A stretch of DNA of 31,234 bases from an uncultured Candidatus Saccharibacteria bacterium (lineage in GTDB: Bacteria; Patescibacteriota; Minisyncoccia; Phycocordibacterales; UBA5272): assembly GCA_964577625.1 (NCBI GenBank), contig CAZNZP010000001.1:1-31234 (forward strand), written 5' to 3'. The notes under the pieces are model-generated. The model had not been told where the DNA came from. It saw only the letters and a list, made by a program, of their open reading frames with translations, and searched no databases. Positions 775-5,558 of the stretch are shown piece by piece. The number at the start of each line of letters is the position of its first letter. Positions within the stretch are counted from its first letter, which is position 1. A program made the position numbers and the translations under genes.

Positions 775-3285
775 ATGAAAAAAGACAAGAAAAAAGAAAG
801 TTCCACAAAAAATACACATCGTGAAAAAAGGAAAAAGTTATTTACTAGCACTACTTCAGCAATTATCTTTTTCTTATTGGGAGCTATTGCACTCTTTTCC
901 TCTTTTAATGCCGGAGGACAAGTAGGCGCTTCTATTTTTGGAACTCTAGAATTAATTTTGGGCTGGGTGGCCTATATTCTCTTTTTAGGATTCTTTTGGG
1001 TGGGTTATAATTTTTGGAGAGATAAAGAAGATACTCGTCCTGATTTTGTTTCTATTTTAGCTCTTCTTGTGATTCTTTTTTCTTTGACTACTTTTACGGC
1101 TTCTATTGGTCTAGGCAATTCTGGAGTGGTCGGAGAATATTTTTCAGCTTTTCTAAAAGATAACTTTGGAAATATTTTGCCAGCCATTTTGTCTTTTGCT
1201 TTAGGTCTTATAGCTTTTGTAATTCTCTATCAAGACAAACCTTCTCTTAAGTTGCTTAAAAAGAAAAACGAAGAAGCTGAAGAAATAGAAAATTCTCAAA
1301 CTGAAGACACTTCTACTCTATCTTTAGACTATACTCGCACACCTTTGGATACTCCAAAAAAGTCTGCTGGAAAGATTTGGGGGGGAACCTGGAAAGCCAT
1401 ACTCACCTTCTTTAAGAAGATCTTTTCTTTTTTGATTTTTATTTTTTCTTTTAAATGGTTACGAGATATTTTGGCGAAGAAAAAAGCTCAAAAGAAAATT
1501 TTAGAAGACTTGGAAAAGCCAGAATCTGAGATTTATAAAGTTTCTAATCTTCATTTAGAAATGATGAATAATTTTGAAAGTAATAAAGAAGAAACTCCTG
1601 AAGAACATCTAGATATAGAAACTCCTCATTTTGAAAGCGAGCATGCAGAATTACAAAAAGCTAGACAAAAGCCGGATGAAGAAAGAAAACAAAGTATTTT
1701 GGAAGAATCCAAACCTGTCTTTATTGAAGATGAGTTTGAAGCTCCAGATTTAGGGCTTTTAAATCCTGATCAAGGAAAATCCTCAGCTGGAGATTCTAAA
1801 TTTAAAATGAATATTATTCAAAAAGTTTTGAATCAATTTAATATTCCAGTAGAAATGGGAGAAGTGACTGTCGGACCTTCTGTTACTCAATTTACCTTAA
1901 AACCAGCTCAAGGAGTAAATGTGAGGAAAATTTTAGGACTCAAAGATAATCTTCAAATGGCGCTTTCGGCTACTAATATGCATATTGAAGCCCCAATTCC
2001 AGGTAAACCTTTTGTGGGTATTGGTATTCCAAATGAAAAGAAAACTTTGCTCGGACTTCGTAGTCTTTTAGAGCTTGATGAATTTAAGGAAGCTTCACCA
2101 CTAGCTTTAGCAATTGGTAAAAACATTATCGGTAAACCAGTCATTTCCGATCTTTCCAAAATGCCGCACTTGCTGGTAGCTGGTGCGACAGGTACAGGAA
2201 AATCTGTGACTTTGCACAACTTAATCATTTCTTTACTCTATAAAAATTCTCCTTATGATTTGAAATTAATTATTTTAGATCCAAAAAGAGTAGAATTTAC
2301 CGCTTACAACTCTTTGCCTCACCTCTACACTCCTATCATTAAAGATGCGAAAACTGCTATTAAGTCTTTGTCTTGGGCTGCTCAAGAAATGGACAGAAGA
2401 TATGATGTGCTTGGAGAATACGGTATGCCTAATATTACTGAATACAATAAAAAAATATTCTTCCCAGCTTTAGAAAAAGCTAAAAAGAAAAGTAGTGAGG
2501 GAGAATATGTGAAAGGACTTCCTCCAAAAATGCCGTATGTAGTGATAGTCTTTGACGAGTTTAATGACTTTATGCTTACCTATCCAAAAGAAATCACTCC
2601 GGTCATCACTTCTCTTACTCAAAAAGCTCGTGCGGCTGGTATTCATCTTATTTTGACCACTCAAAGACCAGATGTGAAAGTTATCACTGGTACTATCAAA
2701 GCCAATATACCATCTCGTATCGCCCTTAAGACTACTTCTCAAATAGACTCTCGCACCATTCTTGATCAAGCTGGAGCGGAAGATTTGCTTGGAAATGGAG
2801 ATATGCTTTATATGAATGGCTCAACTATCACTCGTGTTCAAGCTCCTTTTGTATCTAGTGAAGAAATCAAAGCCGTCATCACTCATATCAAAAAACGTTA
2901 TGAAGACTTTTTACCTGATATTATTGATGTGCAAAAAGTAAATATTTCTTCGTCTGCTACAAGTGGTTATAGAGAAATGGGAGGAGTAGATGAAAGAGAT
3001 CCTACTCAAGAGCCAATGGATGATGAAGATTATATGAGTGCTAGAGACTATGTGATTTCTACTGGTAAAGCTTCTACTAGTGCACTTCAAACTGCTTTCC
3101 GTTGGGGCTATAACAAATCTGCTCGTATCATTAACGATTTAGAAGCTTATGGTATTATCGGTCCGGCTGTTAGCGGACGCCACCGTGAAGTTTTGTTTGG
3201 AAAACCACAAGAAAGTGAAGTAGAAAAATTAGAAAGAGAATTAGAAGAAATGGAGAGTGATAACGACGAAGATGAAGACGAGTAG
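775..3285 (+). CDS. ftsK: DNA translocase FtsK/SpoIIIE
   Basis: N-terminal TM segments, PHLLVAGATGTGKS Walker A, VIVFDEF Walker B, KARAAGIHLILTTQRP, C-terminal gamma domain (ASTSALQ..FRWGYNKSARII). ORF is open from 739; the ATG at 775 is more likely. Confidence 0.97.
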   Translation: MKKDKKKESSTKNTHREKRKKLFTSTTSAIIFFLLGAIALFSSFNAGGQVGASIFGTLELILGWVAYILFLGFFWVGYNFWRDKEDTRPDFVSILALLVILFSLTTFTASIGLGNSGVVGEYFSAFLKDNFGNILPAILSFALGLIAFVILYQDKPSLKLLKKKNEEAEEIENSQTEDTSTLSLDYTRTPLDTPKKSAGKIWGGTWKAILTFFKKIFSFLIFIFSFKWLRDILAKKKAQKKILEDLEKPESEIYKVSNLHLEMMNNFESNKEETPEEHLDIETPHFESEHAELQKARQKPDEERKQSILEESKPVFIEDEFEAPDLGLLNPDQGKSSAGDSKFKMNIIQKVLNQFNIPVEMGEVTVGPSVTQFTLKPAQGVNVRKILGLKDNLQMALSATNMHIEAPIPGKPFVGIGIPNEKKTLLGLRSLLELDEFKEASPLALAIGKNIIGKPVISDLSKMPHLLVAGATGTGKSVTLHNLIISLLYKNSPYDLKLIILDPKRVEFTAYNSLPHLYTPIIKDAKTAIKSLSWAAQEMDRRYDVLGEYGMPNITEYNKKIFFPALEKAKKKSSEGEYVKGLPPKMPYVVIVFDEFNDFMLTYPKEITPVITSLTQKARAAGIHLILTTQRPDVKVITGTIKANIPSRIALKTTSQIDSRTILDQAGAEDLLGNGDMLYMNGSTITRVQAPFVSSEEIKAVITHIKKRYEDFLPDIIDVQKVNISSSATSGYREMGGVDERDPTQEPMDDEDYMSARDYVISTGKASTSALQTAFRWGYNKSARIINDLEAYGIIGPAVSGRHREVLFGKPQESEVEKLERELEEMESDNDEDEDE

Positions 3286-3649
3286 AAGAAATAAAAATAA
3301 ATACTATCAACCTTTTAGAGATAAATTAAGAGTCTGGCTTTTCTTTGGACTTTTAATTTTTATTTTGATTTATTTTTCTTTTAAGATTTTTAATTATTTT
3401 TCTGGTCCAAAAATAGAAGTTTTCTATCCTCAACCTTATGAAGTTATTACTGGAGAAACTTTTTTTATTTCTGGAAATGTAAAAAATGCTAGAAATATTT
3501 ATTTGAATGGTAGAGAAATTACTATTGATGAGAAAGGAGACTTCAAAGAAGAGTTAATTTCCAAAAGCCCATATACCTTAATAGTTTTGCATGCTATAGA
3601 TAAATATAGTAAAGAAAGTGAATTGGTTTTACAAGTTGGAAAAGATTAG
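3272..3649 (+). CDS. Small membrane-anchored Ig-like-fold protein (CPR-type)
   Basis: One TM helix, then GP.I.V..P...ISGNVKNA..IYLNGREI..D..G.F.EEL, a beta-sandwich pattern. Overlaps the ftsK stop, suggesting translational coupling. Confidence 0.75.
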   Translation: MKTSRRNKNKYYQPFRDKLRVWLFFGLLIFILIYFSFKIFNYFSGPKIEVFYPQPYEVITGETFFISGNVKNARNIYLNGREITIDEKGDFKEELISKSPYTLIVLHAIDKYSKESELVLQVGKD

Positions 3650-3736
3650 TATTTTTCTCTTTCCTTCAAAATCCCCTTGTTTTTCAATGATTTTTTGATA
3701 CCACAAAAAAGGTTATTAATTTTTAATTAAAAATAC

Positions 3737-3765
3737 TTGACATAAAAATATATCTATGCTAATAT
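3737..3765 (+). promoter_or_regulatory. Strong sigma70 promoter
   Basis: TTGACA (3737-3742), 17-nt spacer, TG at -15/-14, TAATAT (3760-3765). Confidence 0.8.
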
Positions 3766-3771
3766 ATTATC

Positions 3772-4109
3772 AGACTTGAGTTGATGGTTTTAGTTTTGAC
3801 CAACTGTTAGACAGTGTCATCCATCATTTAACCGCTCAAGAAAATATATATTATAAAAAAATAAAAACTCGAAAAACCGAAAAAAATGCCGAAAATTCGA
3901 GATCAGACGCTCTGGTAAAATATTCAGACGTCTAAATAAAAATTAAAAAACCGTGCCCGAATTAAGAGAGACCCTAATTCTTCGGCCATAAAATATGGTC
4001 TCTCACTTAGCTCCGCCGATATCGCTTGGAGCACATTGCACGGAACCAGCGGAGAACGTTCCGCAAAGAAGAGGTTTGTCCTCGCCCCCTAGAGAATCTA
4101 GGGGGTTTT
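3772..4109 (+). ncRNA. Candidate structured non-coding RNA of unknown family
   Basis: Bounded by a consensus promoter and an intrinsic terminator, with no ORF longer than a few tens of codons. Many GC-rich helices in an AT-rich background. No RNase P, tmRNA, SRP or 6S signature recognised. Confidence 0.55.
4085..4109 (+). terminator. Intrinsic terminator
   Basis: CCCCCTAGA-gaa-TCTAGGGGG followed by TTTT. Confidence 0.8.
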
Positions 4110-4117
4110 ACTTTATA

Positions 4118-4126
4118 TGTTATAAT
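4118..4126 (+). promoter_or_regulatory. Extended -10 promoter for recA
   Basis: TGtTATAAT 25 nt upstream of the recA ATG. Confidence 0.65.
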
Positions 4127-4150
4127 TCGGACATAATTTAGAAAATATAT

Positions 4151-5263
4151 ATGGCTACAAAGAAAAAAGTTGCAAAGAAAACAACAGCAAAAAAAGTTAC
4201 TAACGTTACCAAAAAAGATTCTGAAGAAAAAGGTGTAAATACAGATGAACTTTTGAAAGAAATTCAGCATAAATTTGGTGAAGGAGCTATCATGAAGCTT
4301 GGAGAAACTCCGAAAGTTCATGTCGGTGCTGTACCTACAGGATCCATTGGTCTTGATTATGCTCTTGGAGTTGGCGGACTTCCACGAGGAAGAATTATTG
4401 AAATTTTTGGACCGGAATCTTCTGGAAAGACCACTCTTACACTTCATGTCATTGCTGAAGCACAAAAAATGGGAGGCACTTGTGCTTTCATTGATGCAGA
4501 ACATGCTATGGATCCAGAGTATGCTAGAAAGTTAGGAATAAAAATTAATGAGCTTCTAATCTCTCAACCAGATAATGGTGAACAAGCTCTAGACATTGCT
4601 GAGACTTTGGTAAGAAGTGGAAAAATTGATGTGGTAGTCATAGACTCTGTAGCTGCTCTTACTCCTCAAGCTGAAATTGAAGGAGATATGGCCCAAGCTC
4701 ATGTCGGAAGACAAGCTCGCCTTATGTCTCAAGCTTTGAGAAAGCTCACAGCTATTGCTCACAAATCAAAGACTGTAATTATTTTTATTAATCAGATTAG
4801 AATGCAAATCGGTGTCATGTTTGGTAATCCAGAAACTACTCCAGGAGGAAAAGCTCTCAAATTCTATTCTTCTGTGCGTCTTGATATTCGTAGAATTGCA
4901 CAAATCAAAAAAGGAGACGATGTACTTGGTGCTAGAACTAGAGTTAAAGTAGTCAAAAATAAAGTTGCTACCCCATTCAAATCTACTGAGTTTGATATTA
5001 TGTATGGTGAAGGTATTTCTCATGAGGGAGAACTTTTGGCTCTTGGAGAAAAGTTTAAAATCGTTTCTAAAGCTGGAGCTTCTTATAGCTACGGAGAGGA
5101 AAAGCTTGGTCGTGGATATGATGCAGCTAGAACTTTCTTAAAAGAAAATAAAAAAGTTTCTAAAGATTTAGAAAAGCAAATTCGTAAAAATCTTGAAGGT
5201 GGAGGACTAGATTTTGCTCCTAGCCGTGAAGAGACGGAAGAGGATGAAGCTCCGGAAGAATAG
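4151..5263 (+). CDS. recA: Recombinase RecA
   Basis: [59 protein letters not shown]. Confidence 0.99.
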
Positions 5264-5321
5264 ATTTGATTGTTTTTTAAAAAGGAGGTTTTTTATTTTT
5301 GACATCGTGTTATATTAAAAG

Positions 5322-5410
5322 AGTTCTAAGTAAAATAGAATGAACTAGGTATTCATGCGAAAAATGTTCTTTACGCTTTCCGGTTGTGAAATTGGAGGGC
5401 GTATTTTTTT
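5322..5410 (+). ncRNA. Possible ~90-nt small RNA or attenuated leader between recA and rpsA
   Basis: Extended -10 TGtTATATT at 5308-5316. 14-bp hairpin 5372-5403 with four G-U wobbles that pair only on the + strand, followed by T7. Confidence 0.35.
5372..5410 (+). terminator. Intrinsic terminator-like hairpin
   Basis: TACGCTTTCCGGTT-gtga-AATTGGAGGGCGTA-TTTTTTT. Confidence 0.7.
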
Positions 5411-5525
5411 GCCTTAAATCCCCTTTTATGTTATATTTCTTTTTGTAATTTGTTAAACCAAAAATAAATAATAAACACAGATTTCTGTATCTATTTATAT
5501 TTTTGACACAAATTCAAAATTAATT

Positions 5526-5547
5526 CGCCTTCGCTATAGCTTCGGCG
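5526..5547. repeat. REP-like small palindrome with TTC/GAA bulges
   Basis: CGCC-TTC-GCTATAGC-TTC-GGCG just upstream of the rpsA start. Confidence 0.45.
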
Positions 5548-5558
5548 TAATAAAAAAT

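Follow-up and report, generated by a model that had tools for sequence, protein, structure and literature searches.

A candidate stand-alone structured RNA of undescribed family upstream of recA in one species of Patescibacteria

Introduction

What occupies the 501 nt that separate the stop of a short ORF (3649) from the start of recA (4151) in the bacterium studied here, and is it of any use to its host? Bacteria of the CPR/Patescibacteria are common in wastewater and digesters; their genomes are tiny, and most of them cannot be cultivated on their own. To our knowledge almost nothing is known about their regulatory and structural RNAs. The host of this locus is an ultra-small CPR/Patescibacteria species with anaerobic digesters as its habitat, and its assembly has 518 kb in 48 contigs and is 95% complete.

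The DNA analysed is a window of 31,234 nt, by which we mean the whole stretch and not the feature under study. A preliminary description of this window, made from its letters, placed a stand-alone structured transcript of about 335 nt upstream of recA, enclosed by a promoter and a terminator. It saw no real gene in the transcript and no RNA family that it recognised, and suggested a new lineage-specific ncRNA. Here we follow up these claims using fold calculations, a comparison of relatives and of alleles within the species, RNA-family and homologue searches, and public metatranscriptomes.

Results

Promoter, terminator and predicted fold

The features of the locus are listed in Table 1. The promoter claimed for the transcript was found with all of its parts, is near-consensus and is the sole strong sigma70-like site nearby. 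The claimed intrinsic terminator was located as well, with a stem at 4084-4106 that has 6 GC pairs among its 10 bp and a 3-nt loop, followed by the T-run. Between the two lies a unit of about 335 nt without a convincing gene. The earlier statement that there is no real gene holds for conserved ORFs of more than 10 codons, of which none was found in the unit, but it has to make room for a micro-ORF of 9-10 codons in the linker, which is common to both alleles of that region and is discussed below. A 48-codon frame from 3995 was also considered as a gene and rejected: it passes through the terminator, and its ATG is lost in one allele from the same species (L071).

Table 1. Coordinates of the features at the locus, in window positions.
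Feature	Position	Strand	Remarks
Upstream 125-aa ORF	3272-3649	+	Overlaps the ftsK end; directly before recA in relatives
Cassette, ~460 bp	3650-4116	+	A/T-rich stretch, promoter, RNA and terminator; missing in all relatives examined
Promoter	3737-3765	+	TTGACA, 17-nt spacer, TG-extended TAATAT
Predicted RNA, ~338 nt	3772-4109	+	Start inferred from the promoter; fold and contigs from RNA runs
5' domain	3775-3840	+	Basal stems 3775-3787 with 3821-3840; internal loops 3788-3796 and 3827-3833; apical hairpin 3797-3819
A-rich linker	3843-3950	+	Helix A' 3875-3881/3896-3903; hairpin B 3905-3933
Micro-ORF, 10 codons	3886-3918	+	MPKIRDQTLW; AUG within the A-rich loop of helix A'
Three-way-junction domain	3951-4043	+	P1 3951-3956/4038-4043; P2 3966-3973/3997-4004; P3 4010-4015/4027-4032
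P4 hairpin	4049-4064	+	Invariant across alleles
P5 hairpin	4071-4083	+	GAGG/CCUC, 5-nt loop
Intrinsic terminator	4084-4109	+	10-bp stem, T-run
recA extended -10	4119-4127	+	TGTTATAAT; orthologue of TGCTATAAT in relatives; upstream region overlaps the terminator
recA	4151-5263	+	

The minimum-energy fold of 3772-4112 has an energy of -97.4 kcal/mol. Dinucleotide-shuffled versions give -66.6 +/- 5.0 kcal/mol (z = -6.15), and all 100 of them fold less well. The opposite strand gave a z of -4.1. The fold is multi-domain with local hairpins, and its 5' and 3' ends are not paired together. Every helix that had been proposed by eye appears in it, that is the long interrupted hairpin at the 5' end (3775-3780/3835-3840, 3781-3787/3821-3826, 3797-3800/3816-3819 and 3803-3807/3811-3815), the helix CCGTGC/GCACGG that closes the 3' domain, and the two hairpins that follow it at 4049-4064 and 4071-4083. 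The composition also agrees with the A-rich linker and GC-rich 3' domain that had been described, as 3843-3950 is 55% A and the 3' domain has 51% G+C compared with 33% for the window.

A cassette between the upstream ORF and recA

The recA gene was located in 27 other genomes from the genus, family and order, and 26 of these had enough upstream sequence to be evaluated. The cassette is absent in all 26, where an ORF of about 120 aa is followed by recA after a gap of 0-226 nt, mostly 40-80 nt, compared with 501 nt here. Three further relatives from Logan (L079 to L081), in which the ORF is 70-76% identical, are also without it, and in L080 and L081 the gap is 39-46 nt. In the host the ORF is listed in another version as 130 aa long, starting from a GTG at 3257.

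All close relatives have TATGCTATAAT ahead of recA, and their short spacer is little more than that extended -10. Its orthologue in the host is TATGTTATAAT at 4117-4127, on the far side of the terminator. The preliminary description was thus right in giving recA an extended -10 of its own after the terminator. Given that the relatives are without the cassette and have the same recA -10, we infer that the host has gained about 460 bp here, downstream of the ORF stop and ahead of the ancestral recA promoter. The unit is single-copy, with no second copy or repeat family in the host genome, and it has only weak A/T-rich terminal inverted repeats. No DnaA boxes were found by inspection of 3650-3736.

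Transcription of the unit

Of the words that make up the 501-nt spacer, about half are present in RNA libraries from anaerobic digesters and sludge in the Logan index. When assembled contigs from four metatranscriptomes were compared with 3000-5300, each run had one contig in the unit (3783-4087, 3789-4054, 3788-4051 and 3793-4037). In the same four runs no RNA contig lies on 3231-3769, and recA has scattered low-depth pieces only. Looking up the 305-nt core returned 14 RNA-labelled runs under 11 study codes, with 0.69-0.90 of the sampled words present.

The unit is transcribed as a discrete piece, and the signal comes from RNA rather than from DNA contamination, because contamination would also cover the flanks. 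The transcript ends are placed from the promoter and terminator and from the contig limits, which are compatible with transcription that starts a few bases past the -10 and stops within the terminator or shortly ahead of it. Since strand cannot be read from the contigs, the assignment to the + strand is made from the promoter and terminator. The depth of the contig in one run is 589 compared with 2-6 for the recA pieces, and while such figures cannot rank genes they hint at a high abundance of the RNA. The expectation that this region would be seen in RNA data was borne out, with contigs from RNA libraries that coincide with the predicted unit and leave its flanks uncovered, and with many RNA runs that contain it. 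Having its own promoter and terminator, the unit is a stand-alone sRNA and not a part of a neighbouring mRNA.

Alleles within the species

The 30 same-species Logan contigs, recognised by the same ORF or RecA, all carry the spacer, in 12 distinct versions. Most versions differ by a few SNPs, for example 4034 C>U in an unpaired junction, and three alleles are mosaics. On the same contigs the flanking genes are 92-100% identical compared with 74-84% for segments of the RNA. The -35 of the promoter is invariant in all alleles and the -10 is found as TAATAT, TAAGAT or TAAGCT. P1, P3 and P4 are identical in all of them.

The 5' half of the RNA is most informative in L083. Here, as in L086, the apical 5' hairpin has been replaced (17 of 26 positions), and none of the 46 positions in the basal stems and internal loops (3772-3795 and 3821-3842) has changed. 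The linker of L083 is diverged at 46 of 112 positions (41%) and the non-coding stretch ahead of the promoter at 5 of 87. Between L083 and the reference, both partners differ in 5 of the 9 pairs of the apical hairpin, with standard pairs throughout in either allele. This count is taken from a covariance-model alignment of two alleles, and such an alignment leans towards the model. Slid controls, in which the partner was moved by 1-3 columns, gave 0-1 two-sided pairs. Helix A' of the linker is kept in L083, with pair 3880-3897 going from A-U to G-C. The helix that the minimum-energy fold places in the linker (CUCGAA/UUCGAG) is not kept, whereas helix A', which overlaps it, is. Hairpin B keeps its outer AGAC/GUCU stem in this allele and has a new inner stem of 7 bp.

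The 3' half varies in other alleles. L071 and L075 have 11-13 changes in a 40-nt patch around P2, where 3959-3999 is hypervariable, and the two innermost pairs of P2 are lost in both. In L075, P5 and the terminator are rewritten at 23 of 51 positions. In P5 of this allele the stem is GAGGC/GCCUC and the loop is 9 nt long; in the terminator, pairs 4089-4101 and 4090-4100 have changed on both sides, the first from C-G to U-A and the second from U-A to C-G.

Compensatory changes of the kind looked for in a stand-alone sRNA are therefore present, within one species and with only 2-3 allele states per module. As far as can be judged from the allele sequences, an untouched scaffold beside modules that are rewritten but still paired is the pattern of a functional structured RNA. 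The modules are 25-65% diverged compared with 0-11% for the other non-coding DNA of the locus, and since their pairing is kept, this leaves room for a further reading, in which a conserved scaffold carries exchangeable hairpin cassettes under diversifying selection and the RNA is part of a system with which an episymbiotic CPR bacterium handles conflict or recognition. If this were true the sequence of the hairpins would keep changing while their shape is kept, for example in phage defence or evasion, or in partner-specific recognition. We regard this reading as clearly unlikely.

Relation to recA

The position of the unit suggests that it could act in cis on recA, either as a leader with a regulated terminator (an attenuator, or riboswitch-like) or by promoter occlusion. 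The end of the T-run is 9 nt away from the TG of the recA extended -10. The terminator thus adjoins the recA promoter, so that polymerases finishing the RNA would occupy its upstream region. Additionally, a 13-nt direct repeat (AGAAAATATATAT) links 3839-3851 with the start region of recA at 4140-4152. However, the repeat is not kept in L083, and the same extended -10 is found at the same distance in the 26 relatives that have no cassette, which argues against a role of the cassette in recA expression. The terminator stem is strong and has been kept through the two-sided changes at two pairs described above, and the aptamer-like P1 is 40 nt away from it with two hairpins between.

A riboswitch or attenuator leader of recA finds no support, on three grounds: the ancestral promoter that follows the terminator, an antiterminator that could not be found by inspection, and the lack of an RNA contig that bridges 4087 to 4151, where it should be kept in mind that contigs show presence and not absence. 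Taking both forms together, we find action in cis on recA quite improbable.

Comparison with known RNA families

At gathering score, Rfam finds four tRNAs in the window and nothing else. When the threshold was relaxed to E <= 10 for 3600-4250 on the + strand, the only match was mir-9428 with 14.1 bits and an E-value of 7.7, which is at the level of chance, and a search of two divergent alleles at E <= 1 gave no match. The claim that the RNA matches no recognised family has therefore stood up for the reference and for the two divergent alleles. The best overall match was the C/D-box sRNA snoCD11 (RF00538), with 23.4 bits compared with a gathering score of 60 and an E-value of 0.067. It was dismissed because it lies on the minus strand, without promoter or terminator, and is sub-threshold as well.

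The signature motifs of tmRNA and RNase P RNA had also been reported as absent, and at the locus Rfam is negative for both and ARAGORN for tmRNA. For tmRNA (RF00023), there is no signal of the model at the locus, and ARAGORN finds none in the window or genome. SmpB is encoded in the host, and a tmRNA was not found in its assembly using Rfam and ARAGORN. Canonical tmRNAs of about 390 nt are present in 20 of 24 relatives, scoring 76-143 bits and having no similarity to the orphan RNA. Because these tmRNAs are canonical and unrelated to the orphan RNA, the tmRNA of the host most likely lies in an assembly gap. The host copy of RNase P RNA (RF00010) is on contig C27 with 91.9 bits, with no signal for this family at the locus. 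Bacterial SRP RNA (RF00169) has no signal at the locus and was not detectable in the host genome.

Two resemblances to parts of known RNAs were tried and rejected. For an HDV-like ribozyme at 3951-4043 there is no Rfam match, and the pseudoknot pairs are unsupported by the alleles: in the candidate pseudoknot 3957-3964/3975-3985, 4 of 8 pairs are lost in L071 and L075, and only 3963-3976 has changed on both sides. A mimic of the 23S GTPase-associated centre (H43) was suggested by a shared CCAUCAUU, which is not significant. The best local alignment to the host's own 23S region is 14 nt long and is equalled by 87 of 2000 shuffles.

The last candidate in this group is 6S RNA. No match to its model (RF00013) was found at the locus, and using the same model none was found in the host genome or in 30 relatives. 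This leaves a place for a very diverged housekeeping RNA or a non-homologous analogue, most plausibly one that binds RNA polymerase like 6S or mycobacterial Ms1, and the high apparent abundance of the orphan RNA, its consensus promoter of the stable-RNA kind and its size near that of Ms1 would fit this. On the other hand the fold is made of several local domains, unlike the rod expected of 6S, which has a central bubble and paired ends. The relatives are without the orphan RNA too, so it cannot be the general 6S substitute of the lineage, and tmRNA, RNase P RNA and SRP RNA are excluded as described above. A reading of this type seems very improbable to us.

Homologues outside the species

A BLAST search of the unit against 40 relatives and the whole genus returned A/T-rich low-complexity matches only, and the 3' domain gave no match by BLAST in 400 genomes of the phylum. 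The covariance model of the 3' domain (R1) had no match in 150 genomes of the order, nor in 39 relatives at E <= 1, and the model of the 5' hairpin (R2) had none in the 39 relatives. In the five nearest genomes no copy of the invariant 20- and 23-mers was found, with up to 3 mismatches allowed. Helix-pattern matches in JGI metagenomes and GTDB came to two unrelated contigs of about 60% G+C, both from one pattern, and a JGI contig of cluster member P0016 belongs to an unrelated organism; these were rejected. Phage and plasmid collections had no match to the RNA, and six pattern scans of IMG/VR, which included both alleles of the variable hairpin, had none either.

The RNA is species-restricted, in the sense that it was not found in the relatives searched, with the order and phylum sampled. 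Describing it as a lineage-specific ncRNA is therefore correct in that it is new and belongs to no known family, but the lineage is narrower than the term suggests and consists of one species, with the cassette missing in all relatives searched. The same can be said of covariation: the searches gave no covarying homologues in other species, and two-sided changes are seen within the species in the apical 5' hairpin, helix A' and the terminator.

Given this distribution, the unit might be left over from mobile or horizontally acquired DNA, still transcribed but without a cell function of its own. Its presence in only one species, its insertion into an otherwise conserved gene junction, a G+C above that of the genome, and the mosaic alleles, which suggest frequent recombination, all fit such an origin. 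They have to be set against the presence of the unit in all 30 same-species contigs, from many runs, against the 46 scaffold nucleotides that are unchanged beside modules diverged by 41-65%, and against the pairing maintained through two-sided changes. Mobile DNA also sits poorly with a single genomic copy that has only weak A/T-rich inverted repeats and no match in the phage, plasmid and IMG/VR collections. Because the unit is fixed in all sampled strains and has an invariant scaffold, a functionless relic is unlikely, and it is the reading that we credit least.

A micro-ORF in the linker

In both alleles of the 41%-diverged linker there is an ATG with an in-frame stop after 9-10 codons. The reference would encode MPKIRDQTLW and L083 MRKIRDQTF, and both AUGs are in an A-rich loop. 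This suggests the strongest rival to a trans-acting sRNA, in which the micro-ORF is translated and the RNA is dual-function or translation-gated. Its product could be a leader or arrest peptide whose synthesis remodels helix A' and hairpin B, or it could be a tiny functional peptide. The core K-I-R-D-Q-T is kept between the alleles, and all three changes in those 18 nt are synonymous changes at third positions. A missing Shine-Dalgarno (SD) sequence is no objection to translation because the host hardly uses such sequences: an SD-like 4-mer precedes only 5% of 273 long host ORFs, whose leaders are A/T-rich, and SD-less initiation is thus usual in this host.

Looking at the possible problems with this reading, it comes from a single pairwise comparison, and codon 2 and the C-terminus differ between the alleles. 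One of the synonymous changes (3897) is explained equally well by the change of A-U to G-C in helix A', and GAUCAGAC may be conserved as an RNA motif. Translation of the micro-ORF would leave the invariant 5' stem unexplained, as well as the 190 nt of conserved structured RNA that follow its stop, and by inspection there is no antiterminator pairing with the arms of the terminator. Although it is the main rival, we consider it rather unlikely.

Discussion

Our goal was to account for the 501 nt between the upstream ORF and recA. The reading that we prefer, at a probability of roughly 0.6, is that a structured ncRNA of about 335 nt, stable and strongly expressed, is encoded there by an independent gene and acts in trans. 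Such an RNA would most likely work as a protein-binding scaffold or sponge, that is as a component of an RNP, rather than as an antisense regulator. Protein binding is favored over antisense action because it is the helices, internal loops and junctions that are conserved and not a single-stranded seed. The invariant scaffold of this RNP would consist of the 5' basal stem with its two internal loops together with P1, P3 and P4, and the modules that may be replaced as long as pairing is kept would be the apical 5' hairpin, hairpin B, P5 and the terminator. The variable hairpins may then serve as structural spacers, with a sequence that is either free or under diversifying pressure.

There are observations that do not fit a trans-acting ncRNA easily. 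P2 loses two pairs in some of the alleles and its long loop is unexplained. Additionally, no homologue was found outside the species, and a gene restricted to one species could be dispensable.

The locus provides a concrete RNA gene of a CPR bacterium that is seen as RNA, and it assembles in many independent metatranscriptomes where the neighbouring genes mostly do not. It indicates that even a genome of 0.5 Mb acquires a new RNA gene and fixes it at the level of the species. With an invariant scaffold beside replaced modules, natural variation itself shows which parts of the RNA matter. In practical terms the RNA can be used as a marker transcript for its host in RNA data from digesters. If the micro-ORF were translated, the locus would additionally illustrate leader-peptide control without an SD in the CPR.

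Comparison with known systems

In kind the RNA is known, as an independently transcribed structured sRNA of bacteria; its family is undescribed. The closest parallels are the orphan, abundant structured ncRNAs that were first seen in metagenomes and metatranscriptomes, such as IMES-1 to -4, GOLLD, HEARO, raiA-motif RNA and OLE. Those families were discovered through covariation and are conserved in many species. The RNA described here resembles them in being stand-alone, ORF-poor, strongly folded, a few hundred nt long and prominent in environmental RNA, and also in that its function cannot be deduced from the neighbouring genes. It differs in that it has no Rfam match and belongs to one species, with replacement of modules between strains.

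Leader-peptide attenuators and antibiotic-responsive leader ORFs, of the trpL, hisL, ermCL and catA86 types, are the systems to which the micro-ORF would be compared. The likeness is a short conserved ORF in a structured transcript with an intrinsic terminator just before a gene. The differences are that recA keeps its own ancestral promoter here, that no alternative between terminator and antiterminator was found, and that the ORF is separated from the terminator by about 190 nt of conserved structure.

A third comparison is with 6S RNA (RF00013) and with the mycobacterial Ms1 of about 300 nt (PMC4191392). The orphan RNA shares with these an abundant sRNA in the range of 180-300 nt, a strong promoter, and a lineage without a recognisable 6S. 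Unlike them it has no rod with a central bubble; RF00013 gives no signal, and the RNA is not common to the relatives of its host. Sequestration of a protein would nevertheless be a plausible analogy for how a scaffold of this kind could act. The unusual features of the RNA are its distribution in one species and the cassette-like replacement of its hairpins.

Sequence motifs within the RNA

Inspection of the approximately 335-nt predicted RNA upstream of recA brought out two motifs. The invariant loop (4016-4024) of P3, a helix of the 3' domain, carries CGAUAUCG, an octamer complementary to itself, so that two copies of the RNA could dimerise through their loops. The tetramer AGAC occurs five times, against about 1.8 copies expected from base composition, and is retained in the apical loop of both alleles of the 5' hairpin. 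On the opposite strand, a sub-threshold match to a C/D-box snoRNA contains a box C-like AUGAUGG and a box D CUGA; that strand has neither a promoter nor a terminator there, and the match is probably due to chance.

Coordinates of motifs, spacer and RNA matches (window positions unless a contig is named)
Feature	Position	Strand	Remarks
AGAC tetramers	3772, 3809, 3905, 3926, 3969		by inspection
snoCD11 C/D-box snoRNA-like match	3762-3837	minus	23.4 bits against 60, E 0.067, sub-threshold
Spacer, recA to S1-domain gene	5264-5558		strain-variable
RNase P RNA	G000:C27:155-557	minus	91.9 bits

Housekeeping functions of the source genome

Neither Rfam nor ARAGORN found a tmRNA in the whole assembly of the source genome, contigs C13 and C43 included, and C43 encodes SmpB. 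The SRP RNA and the Ffh M domain (PF02978) were likewise not found in this assembly. Because canonical tmRNA is present in relatives, the missing genes probably lie in gaps between the 48 contigs. The RNase P RNA falls just short of Rfam's gathering threshold for bacterial type A (100) and would therefore be overlooked by standard annotation.

Only 5% of the long ORFs (n=273) show an SD-like 4-mer between -20 and -5, and their starts follow short A/T-rich leaders, often with TATAAT 10-25 nt before. This scarcity of SD-like motifs, together with the nature of the leaders, suggests that initiation is largely SD-independent or takes place on near-leaderless mRNAs.

Spacers around recA

The spacer behind recA varies among same-species Logan contigs: compared with L084-L087, the next gene of L088 and L089 starts 137 nt farther downstream, and in the alignment of L071 identity goes down to 28-52% beyond 5285. 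No RNA contig from the four metatranscriptome runs aligned to 5264-5300, the part of this spacer included in the comparison. In L039 (G029:C2), the recA locus of a same-order relative, the spacer between the ORF and recA is 226 nt long. Within it, some 130-225 nt ahead of recA, lies a long, almost perfect palindrome (GTGTCATTCCCGCGCAGGCGGGAATC ... GATTCCCGCCTGCGCGGGAATGACAC) that looks like an insertion of the REP/MITE type and has no relation to the RNA at 3772-4109.
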